This document shows, piece after piece, positions 1 to 61,426 of a stretch of DNA of 61,426 bases (its first letter is position 1; each line of letters opens with the position of its first letter). The notes below the pieces were generated by a model that did no database searches, was not told where the DNA came from, and saw only the letters and a program-made list of their open reading frames with translations. The translations under genes and the position numbers were made by a program. Source of the DNA: a virus (Duplodnaviria > Caudoviricetes); IMG/VR virus record IMGVR_UViG_3300030116_002629, positions 1 through 61,426 of that record. One strand, 5' to 3'.

Positions 1-243
1 GAATCTGTTCTTGCTAGAAGTGCTCAAGGAGACCCAGCAGCTACAATGGCAGTAATTGCTATTTATGAATATCCTGCTGAAATGACAGATATATTAAAAC
101 TGTTTTACACTCCACAAGAGCCACAAATGTCTCCTGAAGAAGAAGCATATATACAACAACAAATGGGTATGCAACAGCAACAAATGATGGGGCCTGGACA
201 ACAAGCTCCTCCAACAGTAGCTGGTGCTTTAGGAGGAATGTAG
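1..243 (+). CDS. Portal protein, C-terminal fragment (allele A)
   Basis: Open from base 1 (ESVLARSAQGDPAATMAVIAIYEYP...); nearly identical to the end of the full portal ORF 46146-47942. Confidence 0.85.
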   Translation, partial: ESVLARSAQGDPAATMAVIAIYEYPAEMTDILKLFYTPQEPQMSPEEEAYIQQQMGMQQQQMMGPGQQAPPTVAGALGGM

Positions 244-410
244 TGGAAAATCTCGATAACTTATTTTGGGATATTATTGATAATGAATTTGGTGAACAAC
301 CATATGGTGACCCAATGCCACCTATGCCACCAATGCAAATAATTAAACCATTACCGAATATAATAATAATGATTACAGATGAGGAAGGAAATTATGGTAC
401 GGAAATCTAA
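243..410 (+). CDS. Small Pro-rich hypothetical protein, 55 aa (not in the ORF track)
   Basis: GTG overlaps the portal stop; MENLDNLFWDIIDNEFGEQPYGDPMPP...YGTEI; frame conserved in allele B (47942-48100). Confidence 0.75.
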   Translation: MENLDNLFWDIIDNEFGEQPYGDPMPPMPPMQIIKPLPNIIIMITDEEGNYGTEI

Positions 411-804
411 TAAAGGTGGTTACAGACAACCAACTCCTAGTAGGAAAAATGCTGTAAGTGGACCAGGTGCATTAAGTCAAAGAACTGATGGAAATCAACC
501 AGTTATGAGATTGCCAGATGCAGATTATGGTGAAAGTCAAGCTTTTGTACAACAACAACAAGGAGCTCCATTAGGAGATTCAGGAGGAGCTAATGCTCCA
601 TTTCCTTTGCCTGAAGCAGCAGGCCCAGATGTTTTCGGTGGAACAGATTTTCCAGACCAACCAGTAACGCAAGGAATACCAATGGGAGAAGGGGCAGGAC
701 CATCAAGAGATATAGCTAATAATGTTGATATATTGTTATCTGCTATGTATCAAGTAAATCCTCACCCTGTTATACTTCAATTATTAAATAGTAGAAGTAC
801 ATAA
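394..804 (+). CDS. Hypothetical Gly/Pro/Gln-rich virion-associated protein (allele A)
   Basis: Start moved to MVRKSNKGG (394) to match allele B, with GAGGAAGG upstream; VSGPGALSQRTDG motif conserved. Confidence 0.75.
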   Translation: MVRKSNKGGYRQPTPSRKNAVSGPGALSQRTDGNQPVMRLPDADYGESQAFVQQQQGAPLGDSGGANAPFPLPEAAGPDVFGGTDFPDQPVTQGIPMGEGAGPSRDIANNVDILLSAMYQVNPHPVILQLLNSRST

Positions 805-3800
805 TGTTTTTAGACCCCTTTCAGGTAGAGAGCTATTACATGGCTCAAAAGATGGAACAGGACTTAGTTAAGTTATATTCTAGTCCTGAGTTTAGGCCTA
901 TTCTTAATCAGCTACAAGCAGGTATGATTAGAGATTCTTTGGCTGCTCCAATTAAAGATAAACAATTAATTTTTGCTGAACAAGTTCTACCTGTATCAGA
1001 AACTCTTTCAAAACAAATGTTAGCTGATGAAGCTCAAGAAGAATGGGTATTACAAGAATCAAAAAACTGGGATGAGTTATCTGCAAAGTTTAGAGATGAA
1101 AAAATAACAGATGACATGCATCTTAGTGTTATGGATATACTTTCTGGTGGTTGGGCTCCAGGTGGTAGAACTCCTAAAGAAGTAGGTGGATGGTCATTGC
1201 CTATATGGGTAGTGGGTACTTTGGATGCAATTAGAGAGACTTGGAATAAATGGAATCCTTTACCAACTTCCGATGTATTACAATTTGGTGGTGGGGGTGT
1301 TCCTTATAGAGCACAAGGTCGTATTTGGAGATATTATCAAGACCTTAGAAGATATGATGAATTATTAGAAAAAGGATATACTCCAGAAGTAGCACAAGCT
1401 AATATAGCTTCTTTAGTAAATATATCTGAAGTTCCTAACTTAGGTAGAGATTTAGGCCCAGGAGAACTTGAACAAAATATTGATTTTATGCAAGAAGCAA
1501 TTAAATTTGCTGGAGAGAATTATATCTGGGCTGCAGCTAAAAAAGTTATGAATGGTGAAGCTGTCAATATGGATAGAAGCAAAGTATTCTTTTTTGAATC
1601 TATACATGCTGAAGAAGACCCAATATATCAAGAACTACTTTTGAAATTTAAAGGAGATGAACAGAAAGCTAAAGATTTATATTATTTAAAGATTGGTTCT
1701 CCTATCAAAGAACTAGATGCAAATGGAAATATTAATTACACAGGTATAGATAATCCTAACAAAATAAAAATATTTGCTGATAGAAGAACTAATTACAATG
1801 ATATGAATATTACTGAATATGCACAAAGAGAGTTTTTAAACGATGCTCAGTTAACTCCTTATTCATGGGGTAGATATGAAGCTGGCCAGATATATCAACC
1901 AGGTACAACTGCTTACAAAGTTACTTCTGGTTTATTAGATTTTGCTTCAGCTTTACCTGCTGAATATTTTACTGGTGGATTATTAAACTTAGGTAGGATT
2001 AAAAAATGGTCAAGAAGTACTGACATCTTAGTAGCTGAAAAAGCTAGAAGATTAAAAGCTGGTGATACTAGATATCTTGCTAACAAAAAAGAAGCTATTG
2101 AATTACACAATACAATTGTTAAAGCTACCAAAGATAGAGGTAAAGCAGGTAAACAAGCTTGGGATAATTTAACTCCAGATGAAAAGAAAATAGCTACTGC
2201 TTTAAATAATAATTCTGAAGATTTAGCTAAGCTACAATTAAACCCTACACAACTAGATGACTTAATACCGGAAGTTAAAAAAGCACTTAAACACGATAGA
2301 AAACTTAGAAGAAAACATGGTTTAATTAACGGTAGAGTTCAATCTGTATTTGCTAAAGATTCTGGTAAATTAATGGCTTTACCAGAATATCAAATAATTA
2401 GAAAACACATTGCTAATAGCGATTATCACACATTAGTAAATGATAATACTTTAAAACAATGGATACCTGATGATGCATTTTGGAAACATATTGTAGGAAA
2501 AGATGAATTAGAAATTGATAATATATTTAAAGAATTATTAAGTGATGGTGTACATTCAGCTTCATTAATACCTACTCAACCAAATACAGTCATACAAGCT
2601 AAAGGTTTACCTAAAGGTTTCTCTTACATGACTAATGCTGGTATTAGAAAAATGACAGGTAGTTCTGATTTTGCAATGAGAAGTTTAGGTTCTGTTTTAG
2701 GTGAACAAACTGCTGCTATTTGGCAAAAGAGTAAATTTGCAATGAGAACATTGAGGCATTATGACGATACTGTTCAACAAGCTAGAAAATATACACAAGC
2801 TTACAAAGTAACTGATGGTGCTGTTGATGGATTGTTTGATACAGTTAGTGCATTAAGGTTTTATTACAAAAATAAAATTGACCCTAGAAGTCAAAGTATT
2901 AAAAAATATTTAGGATTTAGTTCTAACTTTATGGATGGTTCTTCAGCTTGGGTTAAAAGAATGACAGCTTTAAGAACAGCAAACTATATGACTATGACAA
3001 ATGGAGTAGAAGGAACTAGACAGTTAATTGACAATATAAACTTAAATGGTTTTTCACCAGAGTATTTTAATAAAAAAATGGATGAATGGTTTAAAATCTT
3101 AGAAGCACCAATTGAAGAACAATATCGTTTAAAAAATAATTTCTTAATTGATTATATGGAAGATTCTATAAATCAATCTATTAAAGTTGTTAATGAAAGA
3201 GCTGAAGCAGCAGGAACTGTATATCAAGGTGAAAATATTAAGGCATTAAAAAAACATGCTAAAAAACTTATTACTGACTGGAATAGTGATAAAGCATATT
3301 GGAAGAGTTCTGGTTTCGATGGTGAAGATGTTTACAACATGGTATTTCCTGGTTCATCTTCAGGTATTCTTTATGACACTAAGAAAATGTGGTTGCAAGG
3401 AGAAGATTATAATATCATGGTACCTAAAGCTTCTACTTTAGGAGAAATGACTGAAAACTATTTCCCATTTTTAAATCAAGATATTGTAGATAGAGTTAAA
3501 GGAACAGGATTCTTTGCTTTAGATTCAAATGACCTTAAGAAATTTTCAGGATACAAAATGGCTAGACCTCATTATAAAGAATTTGTAAAAAGATTTAAAG
3601 CAAGTGGTAGTAAAGGTGTCAAACAATATGCAGCTGAAATAGGTGGATATATACCTACAAATAAAACAATGGATGATGCAGTTACATTGTTGTTAGATAG
3701 CTATACAAGAAAAATATTTAAACCTTTTGTTCTTATGAGAGCTGCTTTCATTACAAGAATATTCTTAGAGGAACAAGCTAGAGTAGCTTCTGCACAATTA

Positions 3801-6620
3801 GATTCAGCTTACAATCATCCATTTAGATATTTAACTTGGGTATTTTCTCATTCAGAAGACCAACAAAAAGCATTAATGAAAACATATGGAAACAATTTTG
3901 AAAATATTTTAAATAGTCCTGAATATAAACAATTGATGCATGAAAATCATTTTAAGAATTTACTAGCAGACCATAAGTATGATAATCAATATAAACATTC
4001 TTTTAAAGAAGTTACATTTGATGACCCTAACTATGCAGATGCAATTTATGATGGTTTATTTAAATTAAGAAATGATGAAGTAACAAGAAGAGTTGCACAA
4101 GAAGGTTCAGTATCACCAGCTCTTATTGAATGGTTTTTAGGAAGCAAAGAAAGACAATTACTTAGACAAAGAGGTGGGCCAGATTGGATTAAAGTTGCAA
4201 CAGATGATGAACATGCTATTGCTTATTTACATTCTAGAGAAAACCACATTAGACAATTAACTGGCCATACATTAGAAGAAGGTATTGATTATCAAAGATT
4301 TTCTTATAAAGATATGAAAAAGGGAGATGTAAATGCTTTTGAAGCAGCTCAATTAAGCCATAGAACAGATTCACAATATCATGGTCATCAAGTTCTAAGA
4401 GATGCTATTGCAGAAGGAAAATTTGTAACAAACGAAGGAAAGATTCTAGATTTAATGCCTGTAACAGATGATATAGGAACTTTAAAAGCTGTAGGTGTTG
4501 ATGACGAAAAAGCTATTAAAGATGCTATTCAAAGATACATAGACCAGTATGGAGATGATTTTGATTTTGGTACTTTATATCAAAAACAATTTGATAACGA
4601 AGTACAAGGTTTTGCTAAATTAGAAAAACAATGGGATGCTGGAGTAAACTTTTTCTTTGAAAATTTAGTAGAAAAATCTCTTAACTATTTAAATAGAAGC
4701 GTTGTCTTTAAACAGTATTATTGGGAAAAGATTATGGATATGTGGCACTTGTTTGATGCACCATTAAGAAAACAATATGTAGATGAAATCAAAGGTGTAG
4801 GATTAGCAGATATATTCAAAATAAATGAAAAAGGTACTGATTTAAAGAATGCTCCTAAATTAGGAACAAGATATGGTGTAAAAGATGCAAGTATTATAAG
4901 TGACACAGGTAAAGCTTTTGGTTTACAAGCTACAAAAGAATTGCTATATGATGTGACAAAGAGACATAACATATCTCATAAACTTAGAAACCTTGTACCT
5001 TTCCCAGAAGTTTGGTTTGAGTTATTAACTACATGGCCTAAATTACTTGCAGAAAATCCTACAATGGCCAGAAAGGTTCAATTAGGAATTAAAGGTGGAG
5101 CAGGAGCATCAGGCTTAGGATATACTGGTGATGGTTTCTTTGCAGAAGACCCTAATGGTTCAGGTGAACAAATGTTCGTATATCCATTTGGTGGCTATAT
5201 GAGTAACTTGATATTTGGTGAAGATTCAAATATTAAGATGTCACCTAGAGGATATGTTACAGGTGTCAACTTGTTAGGACAGGGTTTTGTTCCTGGACCT
5301 ACTCCTGTAGCTGGATGGGCCTTAGATAGAGTTCTACCTACTGGTGGAGTTGGTCAAGAACTTAGAAGTATGTTATTTGGTGATTTTGGACCTCCTAGAG
5401 GTGATGGTTTCTTGGATGCTATTATTCCTGACCACCCTTCATTTCAAAAGTTATTTACAGCTATAGGTGCTTCTCCATTTGGAAATCAAGCTGAAATAGA
5501 ATCATCAAGAGCAAGTACATCTATTGAATTGTTTAGATTACTTAAAATGGAAGGTGCAGAAAACAGATTACTTAAACAAGGAGAGTTAGATAGATATTTA
5601 AGAGAGATATCATGGAAAGGTACTACAGCTGATAAGTTACCTCCAGCTCAATTAACACCAGATATTTTAGATTCAGCATTAAGAGCATATGCTAAAGATA
5701 AAACAAGTACTACATTTACATTTAGATTTATGGCACAATTTGTGTTACCTACTGGATTTACACCTAGATATTATGCAGAAGATAAAAATGGAAAGATGTG
5801 GGCTACTCAGTTATTAGCTAAAGAGTATCAAAACTTAGTACAAAAACATCAAGGTGACCATGTAGCTGCATATGAATCATTTGTAAGATTGTATGGATAT
5901 GAGCATGGTTGGTTAACAACTTCTAAATCTGTATCTGCTAATAAACAAGCTTATTCTGAAAGAGTACTTGAATGGCAGAAAGAAAATAAAGAAATATTAG
6001 AACAATTACCTAGAAGTGCATTCTACGCTTTACCTGATAATCCAGCAGAACAAAGAAGTTATCAAGAAATAATTAGGCAGTATGAAATAGGAGAAAGAGA
6101 AGTCTTATCCTTAGAAGAGTTTAATTTAGCTGCTAATGATACTATTGGTTACTTTATGTACACATCATTTAAAAAGCAATATGAACGCTCTGGTATGCCT
6201 GAAATTGAAAAAAATAAGTTATTTAGAATTTATAGAACTGCTTTGATACAACAACTACCAGGTTTTGAAGCTACAGGTGGTTTAAGAAAGCCTGCTACTT
6301 CTAAAGAGATACTAGATGAAATGATTCAGAAATGGCCTAATTTACCTGAAATACAAGAAACAGAAGCAGGTGCTGCATTTGTTAATGTATTCTTACCTAG
6401 ATGGCAAGCAATGGAATCTCAATCAGCAAGAGTGTCTCCATCAGGAAATCCAACATGGTGGTTGTCATCTACAGATAATTTGGCTATTATGATGCGTGCA
6501 GATATGGCGAACTTTATAGAAGAAATAATAGTACAATCACCTGACTTTGCACCAATTTGGACTAATATAATTAGTAGAATGTTCAGAGACGACCATGAAA
6601 TGTTTAACGAAGGAATTTAA
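804..6620 (+). CDS. Very large putative internal virion/ejection protein, 1938 aa (allele A)
   Basis: Long ORF coupled by TAATG overlaps; lies between portal and scaffold; homologue at 48495-54302; function inferred from size and context. Confidence 0.6.
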   Translation: MFLDPFQVESYYMAQKMEQDLVKLYSSPEFRPILNQLQAGMIRDSLAAPIKDKQLIFAEQVLPVSETLSKQMLADEAQEEWVLQESKNWDELSAKFRDEKITDDMHLSVMDILSGGWAPGGRTPKEVGGWSLPIWVVGTLDAIRETWNKWNPLPTSDVLQFGGGGVPYRAQGRIWRYYQDLRRYDELLEKGYTPEVAQANIASLVNISEVPNLGRDLGPGELEQNIDFMQEAIKFAGENYIWAAAKKVMNGEAVNMDRSKVFFFESIHAEEDPIYQELLLKFKGDEQKAKDLYYLKIGSPIKELDANGNINYTGIDNPNKIKIFADRRTNYNDMNITEYAQREFLNDAQLTPYSWGRYEAGQIYQPGTTAYKVTSGLLDFASALPAEYFTGGLLNLGRIKKWSRSTDILVAEKARRLKAGDTRYLANKKEAIELHNTIVKATKDRGKAGKQAWDNLTPDEKKIATALNNNSEDLAKLQLNPTQLDDLIPEVKKALKHDRKLRRKHGLINGRVQSVFAKDSGKLMALPEYQIIRKHIANSDYHTLVNDNTLKQWIPDDAFWKHIVGKDELEIDNIFKELLSDGVHSASLIPTQPNTVIQAKGLPKGFSYMTNAGIRKMTGSSDFAMRSLGSVLGEQTAAIWQKSKFAMRTLRHYDDTVQQARKYTQAYKVTDGAVDGLFDTVSALRFYYKNKIDPRSQSIKKYLGFSSNFMDGSSAWVKRMTALRTANYMTMTNGVEGTRQLIDNINLNGFSPEYFNKKMDEWFKILEAPIEEQYRLKNNFLIDYMEDSINQSIKVVNERAEAAGTVYQGENIKALKKHAKKLITDWNSDKAYWKSSGFDGEDVYNMVFPGSSSGILYDTKKMWLQGEDYNIMVPKASTLGEMTENYFPFLNQDIVDRVKGTGFFALDSNDLKKFSGYKMARPHYKEFVKRFKASGSKGVKQYAAEIGGYIPTNKTMDDAVTLLLDSYTRKIFKPFVLMRAAFITRIFLEEQARVASAQLDSAYNHPFRYLTWVFSHSEDQQKALMKTYGNNFENILNSPEYKQLMHENHFKNLLADHKYDNQYKHSFKEVTFDDPNYADAIYDGLFKLRNDEVTRRVAQEGSVSPALIEWFLGSKERQLLRQRGGPDWIKVATDDEHAIAYLHSRENHIRQLTGHTLEEGIDYQRFSYKDMKKGDVNAFEAAQLSHRTDSQYHGHQVLRDAIAEGKFVTNEGKILDLMPVTDDIGTLKAVGVDDEKAIKDAIQRYIDQYGDDFDFGTLYQKQFDNEVQGFAKLEKQWDAGVNFFFENLVEKSLNYLNRSVVFKQYYWEKIMDMWHLFDAPLRKQYVDEIKGVGLADIFKINEKGTDLKNAPKLGTRYGVKDASIISDTGKAFGLQATKELLYDVTKRHNISHKLRNLVPFPEVWFELLTTWPKLLAENPTMARKVQLGIKGGAGASGLGYTGDGFFAEDPNGSGEQMFVYPFGGYMSNLIFGEDSNIKMSPRGYVTGVNLLGQGFVPGPTPVAGWALDRVLPTGGVGQELRSMLFGDFGPPRGDGFLDAIIPDHPSFQKLFTAIGASPFGNQAEIESSRASTSIELFRLLKMEGAENRLLKQGELDRYLREISWKGTTADKLPPAQLTPDILDSALRAYAKDKTSTTFTFRFMAQFVLPTGFTPRYYAEDKNGKMWATQLLAKEYQNLVQKHQGDHVAAYESFVRLYGYEHGWLTTSKSVSANKQAYSERVLEWQKENKEILEQLPRSAFYALPDNPAEQRSYQEIIRQYEIGEREVLSLEEFNLAANDTIGYFMYTSFKKQYERSGMPEIEKNKLFRIYRTALIQQLPGFEATGGLRKPATSKEILDEMIQKWPNLPEIQETEAGAAFVNVFLPRWQAMESQSARVSPSGNPTWWLSSTDNLAIMMRADMANFIEEIIVQSPDFAPIWTNIISRMFRDDHEMFNEGI

Positions 6621-8236
6621 TGTCTGATAATAATAAAGCAAGACAAAGAGGAATAAAGTTTAGGGAGTGGATTCTTAGCCTATTCAAAAACCCAGCAGCT
6701 CAAGATTATTTAGAAAATAAATATGGTATTACACCTGAAGTATTGCCTCAATATGGTATGTGGGATGCCAATATGGAAGATTGGGGATGGAGTTTTAATC
6801 TTGGACCAGATGGATTCTTATCTAGTGTTGTAATATCTGGAGTAGAAATTCCTATTAAAGAACTTCCAGGCTATGAAGAAGGTTTTAAACAACCATTAGG
6901 TGGTACAGGATTTTGGGGTGGTGTATTTAATTTACCTGCAGAATGGGCTGAGTATGATGTAGAAGCTTTACCTGAAGGTACTGTAAATGTTTTACCAGAA
7001 GCATATGGACCAGCTGAAACTCCTGGTGCAGAATTTTATGGTGAAGCTACAGGTGAGATACAAGAAGAGATGGATGCTGAAGAAGCAGCTGACCCTGATT
7101 TTCAAGCTTTAAAAGAAGGAGCAGTAGAAGAAGAAGAAAAAGAACCTTCATTTTTTACAAGGGAAGATTTTGAAAAAAACACATTATCTGAAGAAGAATG
7201 GAATACTTATCTAGCTAATATTAAAGCTGGTAGTACACCACAAGAAGCATGGGCTTATGCTACAAATGGTGACCCAGCTAAGTTTAATTATGTATGGACA
7301 TGGGATGAAGAAGCAAAGAGAAATAAACCAGCTTATTATTATGACCCAGAAATTAGTGAAAGTCCAATTCCAATACCTGTAGCTGCTCAGCCAAGTGAGC
7401 ATATAAATAAAAATCTTTTTATGAGTGGACTTCATAATATGTCTCCAGACGAAATTGAATGGGTAAAAGATTTCTTGATTATGGGTGGTGTAGCAGATGA
7501 AGGTGATTTTGCTGGACATGGTTTTGTTGATAGAAGTTTAGAATTAATTGTAGGAAATATGATTGATATGGCCAATATGAATTATGGACATATTGCACAT
7601 AAAAGCGATGATTATTATAAATTAATAGAATCTGGAAAAGGACTTTTTGGTGATAATCCACCTGCTATTTTTGAAGATTCAAAATGGTTTGAATGGGGAT
7701 TGTTTTCAGTAGTTGCTTCACAATATGGTATGACCATGGATAAAGCTGCTGAAGTTAAAGCAAAAGAAATAGCAGAAGATACATTAGCTGCTAATGCATT
7801 GCCAAGTAAAGAATCAATGGCTCGTGCTATTAATGATTTAGTTAAAGAAGAAATAGGTGTTGATGCTACTCCAGAACAGGTAAGAGAGTATACAGATTAC
7901 TGGATAGCTAGTCAAACTGAATGGGGTAGACAAATAGAATATGCAAATAAAGTTGCAGAAGTCGGAATGGATATAGAACATTATCATATTAAAACTGGTA
8001 GGACTATGACCATGGAAGAAGTTCAAGCAATGAGAGATGATATAGGTGCTGGAGGAGATGTTTTAGAAGGAATAGTAGGTCAAAGAGAAAAAGTTCCAAC
8101 AGTTACAGACCCTTGGACTGCTACTTACAATTTAGTTGTAGGTGATTTAGCAGGTGAAAAAGAAATTATAGAGGCTGGTAGGAAAAAGAGAGCTAAGCAA
8201 TCTGGTATCTTACAAGCAATGGCAGGTAAGTTTTAA
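6620..8236 (+). CDS. Putative internal virion protein, 538 aa, acidic (allele A)
   Basis: Coupled ORF; distant homologue at 54302-55852 (shared DDIxAGGDVLxGIVGxRE). Confidence 0.55.
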   Translation: MSDNNKARQRGIKFREWILSLFKNPAAQDYLENKYGITPEVLPQYGMWDANMEDWGWSFNLGPDGFLSSVVISGVEIPIKELPGYEEGFKQPLGGTGFWGGVFNLPAEWAEYDVEALPEGTVNVLPEAYGPAETPGAEFYGEATGEIQEEMDAEEAADPDFQALKEGAVEEEEKEPSFFTREDFEKNTLSEEEWNTYLANIKAGSTPQEAWAYATNGDPAKFNYVWTWDEEAKRNKPAYYYDPEISESPIPIPVAAQPSEHINKNLFMSGLHNMSPDEIEWVKDFLIMGGVADEGDFAGHGFVDRSLELIVGNMIDMANMNYGHIAHKSDDYYKLIESGKGLFGDNPPAIFEDSKWFEWGLFSVVASQYGMTMDKAAEVKAKEIAEDTLAANALPSKESMARAINDLVKEEIGVDATPEQVREYTDYWIASQTEWGRQIEYANKVAEVGMDIEHYHIKTGRTMTMEEVQAMRDDIGAGGDVLEGIVGQREKVPTVTDPWTATYNLVVGDLAGEKEIIEAGRKKRAKQSGILQAMAGKF

Positions 8237-12792: not shown

Positions 12793-14033
12793 TGGAAGAA
12801 AATAAAGCACAAATACTTAAAGTTGTAGATGCAGATGGAAATGAAACTGGTGATTTTTATGTCATTGTAGATACAGGTGGAGTTAAATTTGTATTTAAAC
12901 CTACTCAAACATATGAAGAAACATTAGAAATATATAAAGATGTTATAGAAGTAGAAGAAACAGATTCAACAGAACTAGATTTTGAAAAAAGATTTATTGA
13001 TGATGATTTAATGGTGTATTGGGGAGACATAGACCAGTACACAGATACTACTGAAGATGTTATTAACAGTATTAAAACAGCTAGTGCTAATGAATCATGG
13101 TGGAAAAATGAGAACTTTAGAAATGCTTATGTAGATATCTGGGAAAATAACTATGATGATGTTACAGATGTATTTAATTCTGACCAATTCCTTGCTGATT
13201 TAAGAAACTCTAGTGCTATAGGTGCTGCATTTGGTGAAGATGGAATAACTAAAGCAACTTGGAATAGGTCTATTGATGAAAGATTAAATCCAGAACAATT
13301 TATATTGGATGATGATTTTGCAAAAACAATGGTATATGAAACAGCTATTGCAGGTTTAGGTCCTGATGGTGCTGATATTGTTAATGACAATAAAGATTTA
13401 AAACGAACTTTAGATTTGTTAGCCTTTAAATACAACAATGGACATTTTGGTGAAGTAGGTAGTGATAATGCTAAAGCACATTTGAGTGTTCAAATTACAG
13501 CTTTGATTGACCCTTCATCTAGATTAGAAAATGGTGGTTATTATGAATTAGAATCAGATGTAGCTAATTCTATTGATGGTATAGAAATACCAACTACTAC
13601 TAGAAAAGAAAGTGAAATACAAGAAATACTTGACCAATGGGTACCAGAAAATCAACATAGTACATTTAATGTAGCTGATGAAGCTGCAAAGTTAAGAAGA
13701 AATCCTTTGTATAAAACAGAATTCGTTGAAAAAGCTAAGGATGCTAAATTTGCACAATACCCTATGTATGATAGAAATGTAGATTGGACTACTGTTTTAA
13801 ATAGAGGTATAGCTTTAATTGAAAATGCTTGGGGAACTACTCCAAAAGATGGTGACCCTATCTTACATGAAGTATTAACATTAAACGATACTAATAAAGC
13901 AAATGCATATTTGAAAGCTGAAGGTTTGAAAATAGGTAATGAAAAGGTTAGTAACGATTATGCTAAAGCTGTAGCTCAAGCTTACGGTGATGATATAATC
14001 AGAACACCTGGATATGTGGAAGGAAGGCCATAA
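12792..14033 (+). CDS. Putative internal virion protein, 413 aa (allele A)
   Basis: Coupled ORF; homologue at 58388-59608. Confidence 0.55.
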   Translation: MEENKAQILKVVDADGNETGDFYVIVDTGGVKFVFKPTQTYEETLEIYKDVIEVEETDSTELDFEKRFIDDDLMVYWGDIDQYTDTTEDVINSIKTASANESWWKNENFRNAYVDIWENNYDDVTDVFNSDQFLADLRNSSAIGAAFGEDGITKATWNRSIDERLNPEQFILDDDFAKTMVYETAIAGLGPDGADIVNDNKDLKRTLDLLAFKYNNGHFGEVGSDNAKAHLSVQITALIDPSSRLENGGYYELESDVANSIDGIEIPTTTRKESEIQEILDQWVPENQHSTFNVADEAAKLRRNPLYKTEFVEKAKDAKFAQYPMYDRNVDWTTVLNRGIALIENAWGTTPKDGDPILHEVLTLNDTNKANAYLKAEGLKIGNEKVSNDYAKAVAQAYGDDIIRTPGYVEGRP

Positions 14034-15010
14034 TGGCACAACCATTTGTTGAAGGCGAAAATTTACAGATATGGTTATATTCTCCTGATGGACAAAGAGT
14101 AAAAAAGCAATCGGGTAGAAGAAAAGGTGAAAACCAATCTGAAGCTGATTATTTTATTAATGAGTTAGGTTATACAACTTATAATCCTAAAGCTGGAAAA
14201 ATAGAAGATATAAGAGACATAGAAGAAGGCACACAGCGTGCTAATCTCTTATTTAGTTTTATGCCTGAATCAGTTAAGAATGAATTTGCTAAATCATGGG
14301 TAGAATTAGGAGATGTTGAATTAGCTAAAGCTAAAGCTAGAACTACACCTGCATGGGAAAAAGAGTTTGGTTTTTTAAGAAGAAAAGATGGTTCTTTAGT
14401 TATGTCTGAAATAGAAGCTGTAGCTACTAAAGCAGCTTATAGAGAAACATTAGGAGAAGTAGGTATTGTAGATACTTCAGGATTTGAACAACAGTTTGAA
14501 CAGATGATTACTGGTGAAGTATCAGCACAAGAGTTCCAACAAAGAATAGATACTGTATGGAATACTGTTAAAAACAATATACCTCAAGTAGAGTCAATGT
14601 TTAGAAATCAATACAATATAGATTCAGATACTCCTACTATATTTGCTGCTTTAATTAATCCAGAGATACAAGATAAATTATTAAAAGGTGATTTAGTATC
14701 ATTAAGCATAGGAGCAGAAGCTAAAGCTGGTGGCTTTAATAGAAGTTTTGCAAGATTTGATGCACTTAGAAAAGCTGGTTTAGACCAGAAAGGAGCTAGA
14801 CAACTATATCAAACAGCTGAACCATTACTTGAAAGAGCTGGTTCAATAGGTAATGCATTAGGTATAGAGACATTAGAAGCTGCTGCTGTAGGTGACATGA
14901 AAGCACAACAACAAGTATCAAGAGCACAGTCAGAGATACTATCCGAAAGTAGTACTGTGGTAGGAGCTGCTAAAAATAATAAACAAGTTAGTGGACTTTT
15001 AGAACAATAA
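14033..15010 (+). CDS. Putative internal virion protein, 325 aa (allele A)
   Basis: Coupled ORF; homologue at 59608-60582 with an unrelated N-terminal ~60 aa. Confidence 0.55.
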   Translation: MAQPFVEGENLQIWLYSPDGQRVKKQSGRRKGENQSEADYFINELGYTTYNPKAGKIEDIRDIEEGTQRANLLFSFMPESVKNEFAKSWVELGDVELAKAKARTTPAWEKEFGFLRRKDGSLVMSEIEAVATKAAYRETLGEVGIVDTSGFEQQFEQMITGEVSAQEFQQRIDTVWNTVKNNIPQVESMFRNQYNIDSDTPTIFAALINPEIQDKLLKGDLVSLSIGAEAKAGGFNRSFARFDALRKAGLDQKGARQLYQTAEPLLERAGSIGNALGIETLEAAAVGDMKAQQQVSRAQSEILSESSTVVGAAKNNKQVSGLLEQ

Positions 15011-15019
15011 GTGTATAAT
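15011..15019 (+). promoter_or_regulatory. -10 box (gtgTATAAT) for the scaffold/capsid operon
   Basis: Perfect TATAAT at 15014-15019 directly after a stop codon; conserved at 60586-60591; same 9-mer at 31077-31085. Confidence 0.65.
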
Positions 15020-15026
15020 AAAGTTT

Positions 15027-15204
15027 AAGCGTTGCAAGGTCCGCTTTAAATGACCGCAAACCAGCTTTCAGGGCCTGCGTAGAAAGCTTGTACTAAAACC
15101 GCAGAGTAAGGACTTAGGATTAAAACCCTACCAGATTCTAAGTCAAGTGTGAAGGTAGGGCCGCAACTAATAGCCACGGGATTAGTTTGTAAGGTAAAAC
15201 CGTG
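15027..15204 (+). ncRNA. Structured 5' leader RNA with four tandem H-type pseudoknots
   Basis: Four stems, each with a loop complementary to a downstream segment; changes in allele B fall in loops or give G-U pairs. Confidence 0.75.
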
Positions 15205-15217
15205 TGGAGGTACGATT

Positions 15218-15682
15218 ATGAGTGAATTTGACGGTATAGAAAATACTGGCGTAAAAGCAATGCGAGATACTATTGACCGCAAAAATGAAGAGATAGCTAA
15301 ATTACAAGCTGAACTTCATGAGCATAAGGATGCAAAACTAAATACTGTTGTAAAACAGATAGGTTTAAATCCAGACAATGGTTTCGGTAAAGCATTAAAA
15401 CAAGTGTATGACGGTGACGCAACAGTCGAAGCTGTCAGTGAGTTTGCTAAAACTGAGTATAGTTATGAGCCAACAGGAGGATTTCAGGAAGTCACACAGA
15501 CTGAACTCCCACCAGTAGTTCAAGACGATGCAAGGGCTAGAGTAGCTTCACTTGATGATTATTCACAAAGTGATGTGCCAAGAGATGTTCTGAACGACCT
15601 TCAGGAAATCATTGCAAAGGGTACTCCGAAAGATAGTATCCGTGCAAAACTTACTCTGATGGAAGACGAAAAGAACAAATAA
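15218..15682 (+). CDS. Capsid scaffolding protein (allele A)
   Basis: ATG 15218 after GGAGG (15206-15210); coiled-coil, acidic, directly upstream of the capsid gene. Confidence 0.7.
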   Translation: MSEFDGIENTGVKAMRDTIDRKNEEIAKLQAELHEHKDAKLNTVVKQIGLNPDNGFGKALKQVYDGDATVEAVSEFAKTEYSYEPTGGFQEVTQTELPPVVQDDARARVASLDDYSQSDVPRDVLNDLQEIIAKGTPKDSIRAKLTLMEDEKNK

Positions 15683-15717: not shown

Positions 15718-16842
15718 ATGGCAGCAATTACGCTGACTAATAACGCTATTTACTCACAGAAGATTAATAACTTTTCTGGTGAGTTATTCCGTGTAGGTGG
15801 TCAAAGAACTCCTTTCTTATCTGCAACTGGTGGATTAAACGGAGGTAAGGTTTTACAATCTACTTTCTGGCAAATCCAAGCAGCTGACAGTCACACAGTT
15901 TCTTCTGAGCCAACAAAAGGCCAAGAAGGAGCACAACCAACTGAATATCTCGGAAGAGATAGAGTTGCGTACACAGGTGTGACTCAGGTATTCCATAAAG
16001 GTGTCAAGATGACCTATACTGCAATGGCGACTTTTCAACATCAAAATCCATTTGACTTGAGTGCAAATATTATTAACTCATCAGATGGTGACGGAACAGT
16101 TACAGCAGCTGATAAATTATCATTATCAGGTGGTAACCCAATTGTTGATGAGTTCTCAGAACAACTAACTCTTGCTCTTGAAAAAGTAGCTCGTGAGGTT
16201 GAATGGTTCGCATTCAATGGTACTTTTGCCGATGGTGCTAATACAACACCAGGTTCAGGTACTCGTGAAATGAGAGGTATTTCAGAATATATTGCATTAA
16301 ATGCTAATGCTAATAACTCAACAGCTCCAGTCGCAACTGGCGGAAACATTTATTATAATGACTCTTCTGGTGACGGTTCTGGTGCTGCTAGAGTTCTTTC
16401 ATGGGATGCAATCGCAGGTGCTATGAAGCGTCTATATGATGCTCACGCACCAATGATTCAACCAGTGCTTTGTGTAAATCCAAAGCAACTACTTGACCTT
16501 AACAAGGAATTGTTAACTGGTACAGTAGGTATTACTGGAACTATCCTACCAAGAGATAGAAGTATCGCTGGTATCGACATTGATACTATCGTTACTCCTT
16601 TCGGTGCAATTGGTCTTATGGTCATCGACCCTAACATCATGCCTGCCGATTGTGCATTTATCCTTGACTTTGCTTTCATACAACCAGTATTCACAAATAT
16701 CCCAGGATATGGTACTGTGTTCGTGAGAGACTTAGACCAAGACGATTATGCAAGAGTTGGAAAAGCAGTTTACATGGAAATGGGATATGACTTTGGTCCG
16801 CCAAGTTATCATCTCAAATTCGTTGATGCTGATTCAGCATAA
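15718..16842 (+). CDS. Major capsid protein (HK97 fold, SU10-MCP/DUF5309-like)
   Basis: 374 aa, strong GGAGGT RBS; TPFLS, EGA..P, TQVFHKGV, EFSEQ..ALEKVAREVE, REMRGI and IVTPFG motifs. Confidence 0.85.
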   Translation: MAAITLTNNAIYSQKINNFSGELFRVGGQRTPFLSATGGLNGGKVLQSTFWQIQAADSHTVSSEPTKGQEGAQPTEYLGRDRVAYTGVTQVFHKGVKMTYTAMATFQHQNPFDLSANIINSSDGDGTVTAADKLSLSGGNPIVDEFSEQLTLALEKVAREVEWFAFNGTFADGANTTPGSGTREMRGISEYIALNANANNSTAPVATGGNIYYNDSSGDGSGAARVLSWDAIAGAMKRLYDAHAPMIQPVLCVNPKQLLDLNKELLTGTVGITGTILPRDRSIAGIDIDTIVTPFGAIGLMVIDPNIMPADCAFILDFAFIQPVFTNIPGYGTVFVRDLDQDDYARVGKAVYMEMGYDFGPPSYHLKFVDADSA

Positions 16843-16860
16843 ATAAAAAATTGAAGATTA

Positions 16861-16890
16861 GGGTGGGAATCCACCTCCTGCCCTTTTCTT
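16861..16890 (+). terminator. Probable intrinsic terminator after the capsid gene
   Basis: GGTGG-GAAT-CCACC hairpin followed by a pyrimidine/T tract. Confidence 0.5.
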
Positions 16891-16891
16891 C

Positions 16892-16900
16892 TGCTATAGT
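16892..16900 (+). promoter_or_regulatory. Extended -10 promoter TGcTATAGT
   Basis: TGnTAnnnT ending 10 nt before ATG 16910; same 9-mer at 20976-20984 (+) and 36548-36556 (-). Confidence 0.55.
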
Positions 16901-16909
16901 AAGTGAGAT

Positions 16910-17242
16910 ATGATTAAAGTAAAAACAGTATTAATAGATGTATCAGCAGATGCAAGTAATTCAGTTAGTTTTAAAACTGATGGATTGTTATTATCAGGAA
17001 TTAAATTTCCTGCAGCAATGACAGGTTCTGCAATTACATTTGACCACTCAATGGATAACTCCACATGGTCTGATGTAAAAGAAACAGATGGAACAGAAGT
17101 AAGCTACACTGTATCAGCTGGAGATGTTATAAGACTTGACCCTAGTGGTTGGGCTTTTGCAGCAGAAGGTTGGTTAAGAATTACATCTGGAGGTACAGAA
17201 GCTGCAGATAGAAGTTTAGAAGTATATCTTAGACATAGTTAG
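16910..17242 (+). CDS. Small beta-rich structural protein, 110 aa
   Basis: Between capsid and tail genes; beta-strand-rich composition. Confidence 0.55.
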   Translation: MIKVKTVLIDVSADASNSVSFKTDGLLLSGIKFPAAMTGSAITFDHSMDNSTWSDVKETDGTEVSYTVSAGDVIRLDPSGWAFAAEGWLRITSGGTEAADRSLEVYLRHS

Positions 17243-17250
17243 GAGGTTTT

Positions 17251-44238: not shown

Positions 44239-46155
44239 ATGTCTAACAAGCCCCATAAAGTTTGTGAAGGAACTGGGTGTAAAAAATGGTTAAAAGGAAA
44301 GCAAAGACGCTTTTGTTCTACTACTTGTAATAAAAGAACCTGGGCTCAAGAGAAAGCATCAGGTAAAGAAAACATTACCAAAGCTATTAATAGAGAATTA
44401 AAGTCAGATACTGGTGATTATGCTTCTGTAAGGAGGGGTACTTACTATTCAGAGTTTAAAGCAACCTACGCAGACGACTTAGCAGGGGGCCTAATCACAA
44501 CACTAGAGGTAGCAGAGGCCATTGGGACCAGCTCCGCTACTGTTTCACGCATGCTCGCTGCCTACAAGATAGATAAACAGAATGAAATAAATGCCGAAGG
44601 TTGGGAATTAGATGAAACCCAGACTGAAATTTTAAAAAATTTTTCTAGCTTTCGCTCAAAGTACTTTGCTACTGAAACCGGGGAAAAATTCGAGACAGCA
44701 GACTTTCATGAAAACTGGATATTAAACATAGAAGACTCTATAGAGAACGGTAAAGAGTTATTAATACTGTCACCCCCAAGACATGGAAAGACAGAACTAC
44801 TTATACACTTTGCTATATACCAAATAATGAAAAATCCTAACATAAGAATCATGTGGGTTGGAGGTAACGAGGACATTGCAAAGAATGCATTAAGTTCTGT
44901 ATTAGAACACCTTGATGATAATGAAAGATTGATAGAAGACTTTTGTCCACCAGGTACAAACTTTAAACCTGATAACCGTTCAGGAAAGAACTGGTCACAG
45001 AATCAATTTACTGTAGGTACTAGAACAGTACCAGGTATTAAATCACCAACTATGGTTGCTATAGGTAAGGGTGGAAAGATTCTTTCTCGTGACTGTGACT
45101 TGATTATTGCAGACGACATTGAAGACCACCAGACCACTATGCAACCTGGTGCAAGAGAGAACACTAGACAATGGTGGACCACTACTCTTTCATCAAGAAA
45201 AGAGGAACACACTGCTGTTGTAGTTATTGGTTCAAGGCAACACTCTGATGATTTATACCATCACTTGCTAGGCAATGAAAGTTTTACAACAATAGTTGAA
45301 ACAGCACATGATATGGCCTGTACTATTCCTGACCACTTTGTAGAAGAACATACTGACTGTATGTTATGGCCAGGTAAAAGAACATTCAAATGGTTAATGT
45401 CTCGTATGCAAGCTGCAGAGACAACAGGTGGTAGGAAAATTTATGAAATGGTTTATTACAATCAGGCCTATGTAGAAGGTACACAAATCTTTACTATGGA
45501 TATGATTGATAGTTGTATGCGTAATGATTTAATTATTGGGCAGGTACCAGGCAATTTACATTTAGTTGCCGGACTTGACCCTGCTTCTTCTGGATATCAA
45601 GCAGCTGTACTATGGGGTATAAACTCCTATAGAGGCGAGCTATTTCTTATTGATATAGAGAATAGACAAGGTGGGGGAGTGAAACATGCTTTGCAAATTA
45701 TGTCTGATTGGTATAGCAGGTATGATTTACAACATTGGATTATTGAAGAAAATGGTTTTCAAACTGCTATTAGACAGGATGATAAAATAAAAGAATTTGT
45801 TTTAAGGTCAGGTATAATGATGCAAGGACATGTTACTGGAAAAAATAAACATGACCCTATGTATGGTGTAGGTTCTATGGCTGGTTTATTTGAAAATCAA
45901 AAAATCCACCTACCAGTTGGAAATTCTGAAAGTATTGCTAAAGTTAATGCTTATAAACAACAATTGTTATACTTTGACGGGAAACCAGTGAATCAAAGAA
46001 ACAAAGAAAAGACTGATATAGTCATGGCTGGTTGGTTTCCAATGAAAGTATTCAGAAGAATGAACAAAGAGCAACTTGCTACTATGGGATTAGATTATAA
46101 TGCAAGTTACACAAACTTTGAAGGAAGCGACTATAATGAGGCACCATGGGGATAG
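44239..46155 (+). CDS. terL: Terminase large subunit with a fused N-terminal zinc finger and HTH
   Basis: PPRHGKT Walker A; LIIADD Walker B; GLDPA nuclease motif; N-terminal CEGTGC..CSTTC and LEVAEAIGTSSATVSRML. Confidence 0.9.
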   Translation: MSNKPHKVCEGTGCKKWLKGKQRRFCSTTCNKRTWAQEKASGKENITKAINRELKSDTGDYASVRRGTYYSEFKATYADDLAGGLITTLEVAEAIGTSSATVSRMLAAYKIDKQNEINAEGWELDETQTEILKNFSSFRSKYFATETGEKFETADFHENWILNIEDSIENGKELLILSPPRHGKTELLIHFAIYQIMKNPNIRIMWVGGNEDIAKNALSSVLEHLDDNERLIEDFCPPGTNFKPDNRSGKNWSQNQFTVGTRTVPGIKSPTMVAIGKGGKILSRDCDLIIADDIEDHQTTMQPGARENTRQWWTTTLSSRKEEHTAVVVIGSRQHSDDLYHHLLGNESFTTIVETAHDMACTIPDHFVEEHTDCMLWPGKRTFKWLMSRMQAAETTGGRKIYEMVYYNQAYVEGTQIFTMDMIDSCMRNDLIIGQVPGNLHLVAGLDPASSGYQAAVLWGINSYRGELFLIDIENRQGGGVKHALQIMSDWYSRYDLQHWIIEENGFQTAIRQDDKIKEFVLRSGIMMQGHVTGKNKHDPMYGVGSMAGLFENQKIHLPVGNSESIAKVNAYKQQLLYFDGKPVNQRNKEKTDIVMAGWFPMKVFRRMNKEQLATMGLDYNASYTNFEGSDYNEAPWG

Positions 46156-47942
46156 AAAATTTAGATATTAAGAATTATCAAGAAATAGTAGATAATGCTA
46201 CTCAACTTGTTAGTGGAAGGCCTACTAAACATAGGCAAGTACAAAAAGCTAGAATAAAAGCAATTTTAAATGGTGGAGCTGAAGGAATGAAAGCTCTACT
46301 AGGAAACTCGATGGAGACATCAGATGCAGATTTATTACCTGCACCTAACATGCTTCAATCTGGTATAGATAGACTTGCTCAAAAAATAGCTGGAGTTCCA
46401 GATGTAAGAGTAGATATATTAAATCACAATACTTCTGATAGAGCTAAAAGAAGAGCTGAGAAACTAGAAAGAATTGTTACATCATATGATGAAAGTCAGA
46501 ATTTAAATTTACAGTTAGCTCAGGCAGCTAGATGGTTGCCGGGTTACGGATATGCTGCTTGGATAATAACAACAAGAACAGATAAAAACGGTTATCTATA
46601 CCCAACAGCAGAACTTCGTGACCCTTATGATACATTCCCTGGGAACTTTGGTCCTAACCAAGAACCTAGAGAATTAGCTGTATTAAGACGAATACCTAGA
46701 TATAAGCTTGCTCAACTCTATCCTGAGTTTGCTAAAGAAATCTTAAACCCTGCCGAAGAAGAAAGCACTGATACTGCTATCGGAAGAGGTGGGGTAGGTA
46801 CTCAATATCAAAGTGATAAAGATAATAATTGGGAAGATAATACGGGGCAAGGTGTTCGGATTATTGAATACTACGATGTAGGTGGAACTTATGTTGTATT
46901 CCCTGAAAAGAAAATGATTCTTGACTTTGTTCCGAATTATCTCTCAAGTCCTCCTTTTGTGTTTATGAAGAGAACTTCTTTTGATGAATTAAAAGGACAA
47001 TATGACCACATTATTGGTTTGATGGGTATGATGGCCAAAATTAATATCATGTCAGCAATAGCTATGGAAGACTCTGTATTTACAGAAACAAACATATCTG
47101 GTGAATTAGAGTCAGGCCAATATCGTAAAGGTAGATTTGCTGTTAACTATTTGGCACCTGGTACTCAAGTTTCTAAACCACAAAATAATATACCTTATCA
47201 ATTATTTCAACAAGTAGATAGGTTAGAAAGACAACTCAGATTAGTTGGTGGATATCCAGTTACTGACGATGCACAATCACCTAACTCATTTGTTACTGGT
47301 GCAGGACTACAGGAACTTAACGGAACTATGTCATTAATGATTAATGAATATAGAGAAATTATTAAACATGGCCTTGAAGCTATGGATGAAAAAAGATTAG
47401 AACTTGATAGTTTGTTATCTGCACAATTTGAAGAATTAAGAAAGAAACCAATACAAGGTTTTTATGCTGGAACTGCATTCTCAGAAAACTATTCTCCTAT
47501 AGCAGATATTGGAGGAGATTATAGAACTAGAAGAGTTTATGGAGTTATGGCCGGATTTGATGAGCCACAAAAAATTGTTACTGGTTTGCAATTGTTACAA
47601 GCAGGTGTTATAGACATAGAAACATTGCAAGACAATATTGATGGCCTTGATAACATTGCTAAAGTGCAAGAGCGTATTAGAAAAAATAAAGCAGAAAATG
47701 TTTTATTTGAATCTGTACTTGCTAGAAGTGCTCAAGGAGACCCAGCAGCTACAATGGCAGTAATTGCTATTTATGAATATCCTGCTGAAATGACAGATAT
47801 ATTAAAACTGTTTTATACTCCACAAGAGCCACAAATGACTCCTGAAGAAGAAGCATACATCCAACAACAAATGGGTATGCAACAGCAAATGATGGGGCCT
47901 CAACAGCCTCCAACAGTAGCTGGAGCTTTAGGTGGTGTGTAA
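46146..47942 (+). CDS. Portal protein
   Basis: 598 aa directly after terL; helical; Q/M/P-rich tail typical of podovirus portals. Confidence 0.8.
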   Translation: MGIENLDIKNYQEIVDNATQLVSGRPTKHRQVQKARIKAILNGGAEGMKALLGNSMETSDADLLPAPNMLQSGIDRLAQKIAGVPDVRVDILNHNTSDRAKRRAEKLERIVTSYDESQNLNLQLAQAARWLPGYGYAAWIITTRTDKNGYLYPTAELRDPYDTFPGNFGPNQEPRELAVLRRIPRYKLAQLYPEFAKEILNPAEEESTDTAIGRGGVGTQYQSDKDNNWEDNTGQGVRIIEYYDVGGTYVVFPEKKMILDFVPNYLSSPPFVFMKRTSFDELKGQYDHIIGLMGMMAKINIMSAIAMEDSVFTETNISGELESGQYRKGRFAVNYLAPGTQVSKPQNNIPYQLFQQVDRLERQLRLVGGYPVTDDAQSPNSFVTGAGLQELNGTMSLMINEYREIIKHGLEAMDEKRLELDSLLSAQFEELRKKPIQGFYAGTAFSENYSPIADIGGDYRTRRVYGVMAGFDEPQKIVTGLQLLQAGVIDIETLQDNIDGLDNIAKVQERIRKNKAENVLFESVLARSAQGDPAATMAVIAIYEYPAEMTDILKLFYTPQEPQMTPEEEAYIQQQMGMQQQMMGPQQPPTVAGALGGV

Positions 47943-60582: not shown

Positions 60583-60598
60583 GTGTATAATAGACATT

Positions 60599-60776
60599 AA
60601 GCGTTGCAAGGTCCGCTTTAAATGACCGCAAATCGGCTTTCAAGCCTGCGTAGAAAGCTTGTACTAAAACCGCAGAGTAAGGACTTAGGATTAAAAACCC
60701 TACCAGATTCTAAGTCAAGTGTGAAGGTAGGGCCGCAGCTAATTGCCACGGGATTAGTTTGTAAGGTAAAACCGTG
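60599..60776 (+). ncRNA. Four-pseudoknot leader RNA (allele B)
   Basis: All eight helices of 15027-15204 are retained. Confidence 0.75.
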
Positions 60777-60787
60777 TGGAGGTACGA

Positions 60788-61249
60788 ATGAGTGAATTTG
60801 ACGGTATTGAAAATACTGGCGTAAAAGCAATGCGTGAAACCATTGATAGAAAGAATGAAGAGATAGCTAAATTGCAATCTGAACTTCATGAACACAAGGA
60901 TGCAAAGCTTAATTCTGTTGTAAAACAGATAGGTTTAAATCCAGACAGTGGTTTTGGTAAAGCATTAAAACAAGTGTATAACGGTGATGCAACAGTTGAA
61001 GCCGTTAGTGAGTTTGCTAAGACTGAGTATAGTTATGAGCCAACAGGAGCAATTCAGGAAGTCACACAGACTGAAGAGCCACCAGTAGTTCAGGACGATG
61101 CAAGGGCTAGAGTAGCTTCACTTGATGCAAATTCTACAAGTGATGTACCAGGAGATGTTCTGAGTGAACTTCAGGATATAATTAGCAAGGGTACTCCTAA
61201 AGATAGTATCCGAGCAAAACTTACTCTGATGGAGAACGAAAAGAACTAA
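60788..61249 (+). CDS. Capsid scaffolding protein (allele B)
   Basis: ATG after GGAGG; homologue of 15218-15682. Confidence 0.7.
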   Translation: MSEFDGIENTGVKAMRETIDRKNEEIAKLQSELHEHKDAKLNSVVKQIGLNPDSGFGKALKQVYNGDATVEAVSEFAKTEYSYEPTGAIQEVTQTEEPPVVQDDARARVASLDANSTSDVPGDVLSELQDIISKGTPKDSIRAKLTLMENEKN

Positions 61250-61289
61250 ATAAGTATAAGTACAAGTTAAGAGTTTACGGAGGTAAATT

Positions 61290-61426
61290 ATGGCAAGCAT
61301 AAGCTTGACAAATAACGCTATTTACTCACAGGCAATTAATAATTTTTCCGGTGAGTTATTCCGTGTAGGTGGTCAAAGAACTCCTTTCTTATCTGCAACT
61401 GGTGGATTAAACGGAGGTAAGGTTTT
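61290..61426 (+). CDS. Major capsid protein, N-terminal fragment (allele B, cut by the window end)
   Basis: MASISLTNNAIYSQAINNFSGELFRVGGQRTPFLSATGGLNGGKV. Confidence 0.9.
   Translation, partial: MASISLTNNAIYSQAINNFSGELFRVGGQRTPFLSATGGLNGGKV

Follow-up and report, generated by a model that had tools for sequence, protein, structure and literature searches.

Phage populations form recombining mosaics with hypervariable structural modules, and several phages package proteins in the capsid for ejection, such as gp14-16 of T7, gp7/MuF of SPP1 and gp7/16/20 of P22. By portal and terminase, the nearest cultured relatives of the phage considered here are a subfamily of soil actinophages, the Beephvirinae (cluster BF), to which Streptomyces phage FlowerPower (L198, 1-18844) belongs. 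LPD38 is a domain of phage 'polyvalent' proteins that excerpts of two reports (Iyer et al. 2017, PMC5512222, and a preprint on phi24B gp47) predict or propose to be packaged. In excerpts of their paper, the authors of CheckV state that contigs of concatenated genomes occur in IMG/VR and that repeats such as those 55, 77 or 99 bp long have their size from the k values of the assembler (PMC8116208). Here we analyze the entire IMG/VR record IMGVR_UViG_3300030116_002629 (61,426 nucleotides, nt; hereafter the window), in which a module of large genes lying between the portal and major capsid protein genes appears twice, as two diverged copies that we call alleles A and B. We conclude, with a probability of roughly 0.88, that the apparent duplication is an assembly artefact, and that the contig represents one phage genome of ~45.6-47.7 kb, circular or circularly permuted, written ~1.3 times.

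Comparison of 1-16500 with 46500-61426 by blastn gave 11 collinear pieces of 71.8-90.2% identity, running from 1=47709 through 15854=61426, and the homology of A and B extends to both ends of the contig. The open reading frames (ORFs) of the two copies pair one to one and in the same order, from the portal C-terminus through the six genes of the module and the scaffold-like gene to the start of the capsid gene. An earlier interpretation of the window made without database searches, the sequence-only reading, had proposed that 1-15854 and 47709-61426 carry the same genes in the same order, and both the alignment and the matching ORFs bear this out. In global alignments, amino acid (aa) identity between A and B drops from the borders toward the middle of the module, with 96% for the portal C-terminus, 67% for the 141/136-aa proteins, 55% for the giant 1938/1935-aa proteins, 30% for the 538/516-aa pair, 40% for the 413/411-aa pair, 62.5% for the 325/324-aa pair and 88% for the scaffold-like protein. 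In the 1518/844-aa pair encoded by gene 4 (8236-12792 vs 55852-58386), homology is limited to the last ~300 residues (48% over 299 aa), and the N-terminal 1,221 aa of A, which carry DUF7831 and phrog_9995, are unrelated to the N-terminal 554 aa of B. This difference amounts to a domain swap next to a conserved C-terminal part.

The sequence-only reading described the flanks of the module as near-identical. This holds for the first ~170 nt, at the portal end, and for a 208-nt leader upstream of the scaffold-like gene (96%), and near-identity is limited to these two stretches; as a whole the flanks are 80% (1-807) and 86.6% (14260-15854) identical by blastn. It also described the differences within conserved patches as mostly synonymous. 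The patch at 1230-1400 agrees, once its partner is corrected from ~48920 to 48918-49088 (offset 47,688): 47 of its 57 codons are identical, 7 differ synonymously and 3 non-synonymously. In the wider patch 1014-1991, the 326 codons comprise 189 identical, 70 synonymous and 67 non-synonymous ones. Ratios of non-synonymous to synonymous substitution rates (dN/dS) of 0.4-0.7 for the middle genes are unreliable, because dS, at ~0.9-1.0, approaches saturation and most of the global alignment of the 1518/844-aa pair joins sequence without homology.

The way in which the contig ends carries much of the argument. Its last 77 nt match 15778-15854 exactly, as had been noticed earlier, and the base preceding them is mismatched. 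This run is the longest of 226 exact runs in the alignment of the right flank, where the runner-up has 49 nt and identity over the 300 nt before the 77-mer is 86%. The contig stops exactly 77 nt past the last A/B difference, as is expected of a graph edge that re-enters a vertex at k=77. Copy A is without the first ~520 portal codons, and of the capsid gene copy B has no more than the first 45 codons. Each copy is thus truncated by a contig end instead of being bounded by unique DNA, which argues for the geometry of a circle written more than once and not for that of a duplication. The unit is 47,708 nt long via A and 45,572 nt via B, and the contig spans 1.29-1.35 genome units.

Relatives of the window have genomes of similar size. 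Two of the 10 long relatives queried belong to the direct-terminal-repeat class, G003 (46,827 nt, its ends overlapping exactly over 99 nt) and G006 (43,905 nt, 83-nt overlap); each matches the capsid gene once and is free of internal repeats. A length above 48 kb is reached only by G007 and G008, the two longest of the 10, and both have a diverged self-overlap, found when five relatives were fetched whole and each was compared with its own sequence. In G007 (50,478 nt; L178-L180), 2-7852 pairs with 41621-50478 at 73-95% identity and the overlap closes in an exact run of 127 nt, whose match lies at an internal site. In G008 (52,621 nt; L172-L174), 2006-8204 pairs with 44816-51037 at 80%, and there are two capsid matches, 71-73% identical to the capsid of the window. 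Both records are given as linear and as 100% complete. Among relatives free of self-overlap, the largest reach at most 47.9 kb.

These comparisons make it highly improbable that the record represents a true partial tandem duplication or a packaged heterozygous concatemer, with A, backbone and B on one molecule. Such a molecule would agree with the existence of a single record that CheckV rates 100% complete, and the copies are too diverged for a trivial exact concatemer. Against it, both copies are truncated by the contig ends, a second copy was found in neither of the two terminal-repeat relatives, the 61.4 kb of the window stand against the upper size of relatives free of self-overlap, and the k-length stop recurs, at 127 nt, in G007.

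The window is classed as 'linear' in IMG/VR with a CheckV completeness of 100. By our own computation, which is not that of CheckV, its mean k-mer frequency is 1.012 (k=15), 1.007 (k=21) and 1.003 (k=31); the value stays near 1 because the copies are diverged. We found no direct terminal repeat of at least 20 bp in the window: its first 25 nt are unique, and its last 25 nt match the internal positions 15830-15854. With a k-mer frequency near 1 and no repeat between start and end, the usual repeat checks would miss this record.

Both alleles were also recovered in independent contigs. L082 (8.3 kb) joins a portal to B and matches 46101-54370 at 96.9%, uniformly over its length, and L181 matches B at 57209-60642 (99.97% over 3,434 nt). 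For A, L083 joins a portal 96.7% identical to that of the window to an A-type module (89%), and L085 and G001/L084 carry A-type modules that are 94-95% identical over their left part. The A module is further covered by near-identical Logan contigs of the sequencing runs X1 and X2, from two studies; a 7,777-nt contig, for example, has 0 other letters over 8000-9555, and a 2,820-nt contig has 3. At the right border, L182 and L196 (96% to the end of B) continue into a capsid gene that is mostly 97-99% like that of the window, with one 200-nt bin at ~91%, and the A-type G001 continues into a capsid gene 95-97% like it. Independent contigs thus contain all four types of junction. L082 joins the portal to B, and L083, L085 and G001 join it to A-type modules; L182, L196 and L183 lead from B-type modules into the capsid gene, as G001 does from its A-type module. 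We conclude that both alleles are real natural variants. The sequence-only reading had explained the tandem as a walk of the assembly graph through two population variants, the genome itself having ~46-48 kb. This explanation is upheld by the agreement of the unit lengths with relatives of 43.9 and 46.8 kb, the homology up to both contig ends, the 77-nt stop, the same architecture in G007 and the presence of both alleles in independent contigs.

The tangle probably arose as follows, in the de Bruijn graph of an assembler working with a mixed natural population. Two co-assembled lineages would diverge strongly between the portal C-terminus and the capsid N-terminus while sharing exact stretches longer than the assembler k at both borders (98 nt at the portal end and at least 77 nt at the capsid start), so that the graph would form a circle with one 13-15 kb bubble. 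The path would start in A, exit via the capsid gene, go round the backbone, enter B at the portal fork and stop at the 77-mer vertex already used. We infer both this path and the presence of A and B within one read set.

Several points weigh against this explanation. The 5' end of the contig misfits a simple k=77 edge, with a mismatch at nt 9 followed by the 98-nt exact run of the left border (10-107 = 47718-47815), and the start position is unexplained. The 77-mer sits in a stretch conserved across the family, where B-type contigs are 99-99.5% identical to the window (15778-15977); a long exact run is unsurprising there in itself, and the informative feature is only that the contig stops exactly 77 nt past the last difference. 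The witnesses L082, L083, L182 and L196 are short-read assemblies and could be chimeric at the same conserved borders. The evidence from sequencing runs consists of Logan contigs, not reads, and among the pieces listed none bridges 15854. These contigs came from four of 24 runs (X1, X2, X7 and X8, from four studies) and were placed on 8000-27999, hence on the A side only. Finally, L084 and L085, the nearest A-type relatives (module 94-95%), have portals 91-92% and terminases 89-90% like those of the window, and L082, the nearest B-type relative, has a portal at 97%; the window portal may thus be native to B instead of to both alleles. For near-identical pieces, the word depths given per contig, figures that cannot rank parts of a sequence, were 9.2-12.9 over the A module and 13-14.7 over the backbone in run X1, and 10-11.2 and 4.9-6.8 respectively in run X2.

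The limited span of the layout and the odd 5' end bear on whether A and B ever shared a sample. They may never have co-occurred, the join coming from the pooling or co-assembly of samples or from a scaffolding or merging step: A was seen in X1 and X2, where the layout covers the A side only, and the 5' end could reflect post-processing. We regard this as improbable, because an exact junction of k length is the product of a single graph and related variants are plentiful within single runs.

The portal identities raise a more specific question, that of one backbone or two. A and B might belong to two separate phages with their own diverged backbones, the backbone of the contig being that of one of them or a hidden mixture; the module would then not be exchanged, and the graph would have been tangled at the conserved border genes. 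The portals and terminases of L084 and L085, less similar to the window than their modules, fit this possibility, as does L082, which is at 97% in both portal and module. Past the capsid gene, A-type and B-type relatives alike turn patchy relative to the window: the B-type L196 varies between 76 and 99%, and the A-type G001 finds no match at 21-24 and 28-31 kb. In run X1, 207 of the 1,786 placed contigs are at least 99% alike, which indicates a swarm of relatives.

We nevertheless consider two separate, non-exchanging phages rather unlikely, given how portals and modules are combined among relatives. L082 and L083 have portals 98.8% identical to each other, with modules, B-type and A-type respectively, that are 67% identical. 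Conversely, modules are at least 88% identical in six pairs whose portals are at most 86.2% identical, and B-type modules are also found with portals just 86% like that of the window. Portal and module identity are uncorrelated (Spearman rho 0.10; 21 pairs from 7 sequences). Of 65 sites that distinguish A from B in the scaffold-like gene and the start of the capsid gene, G001 carries the B letter at 21, the A letter at 41 and neither at 3, and its A-like and B-like blocks are separated by just 21-26 nt. Such gaps leave no room for the path to switch when k is 33 or larger, being shorter indeed than any assembler k, and at least this mosaic must therefore be real. Together, these observations point to real exchange: module type appears to be reassorted relative to portal type among relatives, and fine-scale recombination probably acts in the capsid-start region of G001. 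We retain the single wrapped genome as our explanation of the record, with A and B as variants in a recombining swarm of uncultured marine phages. The A-type relative G001 (L199; compared with 15218-15777 of the window) also bears the B-specific first 31 nt of the capsid gene.

The module varies widely in the family, as do other parts of the genome. In relatives whose portal and capsid genes are 70-85% identical to those of the window, it is unalignable as DNA, and the same is true of 20.6-24, 28-31 and 40-44 kb. The 20.6-24 kb region holds ORFs with tail-fibre-like PHROG hits. Over the module, G001 matches the window at 83-97% per kb, yet it loses the two regions mentioned above. The sequence-only reading had seen the variable island in a set of ejected proteins rather than in the tail fibres. 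This opposition finds no support, since the tail-fibre-like regions are equally unalignable in relatives and G001 keeps the module while losing 21-24 and 28-31 kb; as judged from these alignments, the module is one of several variable islands. Homologues of its proteins are found across the family at 23-94% identity, with 53, 63 and 78 distinct sequences among the fetched loci for the 141-aa, 413-aa and 325-aa proteins respectively. The module is thus not a set of unrelated cassettes, and we describe it as a syntenic, fast-evolving core of large, putatively virion-associated proteins.

Searches for function gave few leads. Pfam matched two of 17 proteins, only one of them within the module (DUF7831, in the 1518-aa protein). 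The giant 1938/1935-aa proteins matched no Pfam family at E ≤0.01, MuF, LPD, peptidase and lysozyme families included, and the best sequence matches in PDB had E 0.34 for the 1938-aa and 0.85 for the 1518-aa protein. Atlas gave a weak lead for the giant protein, an LPD38-bearing cluster with a score of 0.93 and 149 shared features, below the guide value of 170 of that tool. The 413-aa protein was modelled with a mean predicted local distance difference test (pLDDT) of 88.2 and a predicted template modelling score (pTM) of 0.72, and the 325-aa protein with a pLDDT of 82.5. With an acceptance threshold of E ≤0.001, Foldseek found no match in PDB for either fold (best E 0.15 and 0.11), and the best VIA-align Z values, 6.5 and 5.0, lie within the stated noise. 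The first-ranked BFVD match of the 413-aa model is a 'minor tail protein' of Streptomyces phage FlowerPower, which is a weak match (E 1.1e-2, probability 1.00, template modelling score 0.37). We also considered the 325-aa product as a prohead protease, its gene lying directly upstream of the scaffold-like gene, and no protease family or fold emerged.

The role of virion-interior, ejected proteins that the sequence-only reading gave to the module is a reading of gene position and size, and we do not carry it further than that: internal or ejected proteins are our likeliest guess, tail components being possible as well. More speculatively, the portal-to-capsid block might be an exchangeable cassette of capsid-packaged, host-delivered proteins under diversifying pressure from host barriers. 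It would be swapped among co-circulating marine phages by homologous recombination at two fixed anchors, one being the conserved portal C-terminus and the other the region from the promoter through the pseudoknotted leader and the scaffold-like gene to the start of the capsid gene. The breakpoint between L082 and L083, at ~47812 of the window, coincides with the A/B breakpoint at 47815, so that two independent pairs break within the same ~100 nt. We hold this idea as tentative and lean against it; if it is true, the assembler tangle is a by-product of a real recombination hotspot.

The leader itself is a 208-nt non-coding stretch with 44% G+C (15011-15217 in A), situated between the 325-aa gene and the scaffold-like gene. 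By blastn, the A leader matched 82 of the fetched loci at 74-99.5% identity, among them loci in which the DNA of the adjacent 325-aa gene can be aligned just in part or shows no alignment. It begins with TATAAT, which is invariant in 48 of 48 aligned sequences and is preceded by TGGACT at a 16-nt spacing, and it runs up to the GGAGG and the ATG from which the scaffold-like gene is translated. The promoter-like hit is not significant by itself (1 found vs 1.1 expected in the search), and it is the invariance of TATAAT across the 48 sequences that supports the site. The structured part is ~190 nt long, with seven helices of which two pairs cross as pseudoknots, and 98.5% of 1,917 alignment cells are paired. 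Compensatory changes occur in 18 of 40 pairs. None of 500 shuffles reached the observed percentage of paired cells, the number of pairs or of cells changed on both sides, or the covariation score; for one of the five measures, further pair types, the observed value was not above the shuffles (324/500). When partners were slid by 1-3 columns, pairing fell to 28-40% of cells. A gap of 2 nt separates the ribosome-binding site from the 3' helix, in which 15180-15184 pairs with 15205-15209. Comparative analysis thus gives good support to a structured leader RNA with two predicted pseudoknots. Rfam contained no match at the gathering threshold over the window and none at E ≤1 on 14980-15260, and no literature search was made for this RNA. 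We regard the leader RNA, without Rfam match, as a more interesting object of this region than the apparent duplication.

The remainder of the genome places the window among uncultured phages. It has 34% G+C, and no tRNA genes were found in it. The large terminase matches phrog_38 (E 1.3e-59) and the major capsid protein the Pfam family SU10_MCP (E 4.1e-40). The portal gave distant tblastn hits in 31 records, 29 of them Streptomyces phages with annotated portals (best E 5e-17), and the capsid protein matched 24 records of cultured phages, each at less than 30% identity. Megablast of 24 kb of backbone (15855-40000) against phages returned no match, and no cultured phage appears, by these comparisons, to be close to the window. 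Uncultured kin are numerous in IMG/VR, with 220 capsid and 336 portal matches, of which the best 80 of each were used. For the right end of B, the close IMG/VR relatives are 4 loci with a top identity of 69%, and an exact backbone 32-mer (20321-20352) is present in no other IMG/VR record. The sequencing runs that contain part of 10855-20854 (20 of 24 listed, from 8 studies, 7 of them with at least half of its words) are labelled as marine, seawater or freshwater metagenomes, and one of these studies may be the source of the record.

Outside the module, a minus-strand block (31883-43552) contains genes for a SET-domain protein (31883-32215) and for an SLT lysozyme-like protein (33068-33487), together with those for an annealing protein, an exonuclease and an AAA_5 ATPase. 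A scan of 36 backbone ORFs revealed no family of DNA polymerases. The gene at 21373-22296 encodes a glycine-rich-domain protein (Pfam Gly_rich_2), and many joints and loose ends lie at 21.5-22.1 kb in the Logan layout of runs X1, X2 and X7. This stretch looks like a repetitive, highly variable one among co-occurring relatives. The coordinates of the features are collected in the table.

Table. Features of the window, with positions counted from its first nucleotide
Feature	Position	Strand	Remarks
Allele A portal end, last 80 codons, 5' side cut by contig start	1..243	+	In frame with 46146-47942; 96% aa identity to its C-terminus
Allele A gene 1, 141 aa, function unassigned (phrog_8200)	379..804	+	67% aa identity to B copy
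Allele A gene 2, giant, 1938 aa, without family match	804..6620	+	55% aa identity to B copy
Allele A gene 3, 538 aa, without family match	6620..8236	+	BLASTP vs B: 28% over 419 aa, E 9e-35
Allele A gene 4, 1518 aa	8236..12792	+	DUF7831 (residues 130-214), phrog_9995 (416-534); C-terminal ~300 aa common with B
Allele A gene 5, 413 aa	12792..14033	+	Confident model, no solved-fold match; weak fold match to FlowerPower 'minor tail protein'
Allele A gene 6, 325 aa, largely helical, phrog_8424	14033..15010	+	No known fold
Promoter-like site and structured 5' leader, allele A	14992..15217	+	TGGACT-16-TATAAT at 14992-15019
Scaffold-like gene, allele A, 154 aa from ATG after GGAGG (phrog_7813)	15218..15682	+	
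Major capsid protein, sole complete copy	15718..16842	+	SU10_MCP; contains 77-mer 15778-15854
Single-copy backbone	15855..47708	.	Tail-like genes, then minus-strand block, large terminase (44239-46155), most of portal
Portal C-terminus of complete portal gene; allele B copy starts	47709..47942	+	
Allele B module, order as in A: 136, 1935, 516, 844, 411, 324 aa	48084..60582	+	
Structured 5' leader, allele B (TATAAT at 60586)	60583..60787	+	
Scaffold-like gene, allele B, 153 aa	60788..61249	+	
Second capsid gene start, 45 codons, cut by contig end	61290..61426	+	Last 77 nt = 15778-15854

No biological meaning should be attached to the apparent duplication of 14-16 kb: the record is best handled as a ~46 kb genome plus a second allele. 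For virus catalogues, this means that a wrap-around through a diverged variant can pass as a complete linear genome, a situation that we saw in two of the five self-compared relatives. The biology that remains is of a familiar type, that of a recombining swarm in which several islands are hypervariable. In addition, the record offers two cleanly paired natural alleles for a large module, so far uncharacterised, that adjoins the portal gene.

Set beside the wrap-around artefacts described in the excerpts of the CheckV paper (PMC8116208), the window shares a contig longer than one unit, an exact identity of k length (77 here, 99 in G003, 83 in G006 and 127 in G007) and a unit of the size of complete relatives. 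It differs from them in that its repeat is 72-90% identical, the second pass following another lineage, and in that the exact identity links the 3' end to an internal site instead of linking end to end. As in mosaic phage populations, conserved flanks (portal, leader, scaffold-like gene and capsid gene) surround a block reassorted among lineages, with a domain-level swap in one gene; unlike in these, the variable block is a 13-15 kb portal-to-capsid module of syntenic large proteins, and the tail-fibre-like and early regions are equally variable. The very large, fast-evolving proteins beside the portal in a head-gene cluster, one of them with a domain swap, resemble ejection and polyvalent proteins, whereas the giant protein of the window is without the MuF, LPD, peptidase and lysozyme domains of Pfam (E ≤0.01).

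FlowerPower differs from the window by an endolysin gene between terminase and portal, by a transfer RNA array within the module before the small ORF that precedes the capsid gene, and by module proteins annotated as 'minor tail' and not as 'internal'. The likeness concerns the architecture of the head module. FlowerPower has, in order, terminase, portal, small ORFs, a giant ORF (1,635 aa), several ORFs of 280-430 aa, a small ORF and the capsid gene, and in FlowerPower and its kin the portal is a distant homologue of that of the window (22-23.5% identity, E 2e-16 to 5e-17) and the terminase is homologous as well. With homologous portal and terminase and the same order of genes from portal to capsid, the window carries a head module of the Beephvirinae type.

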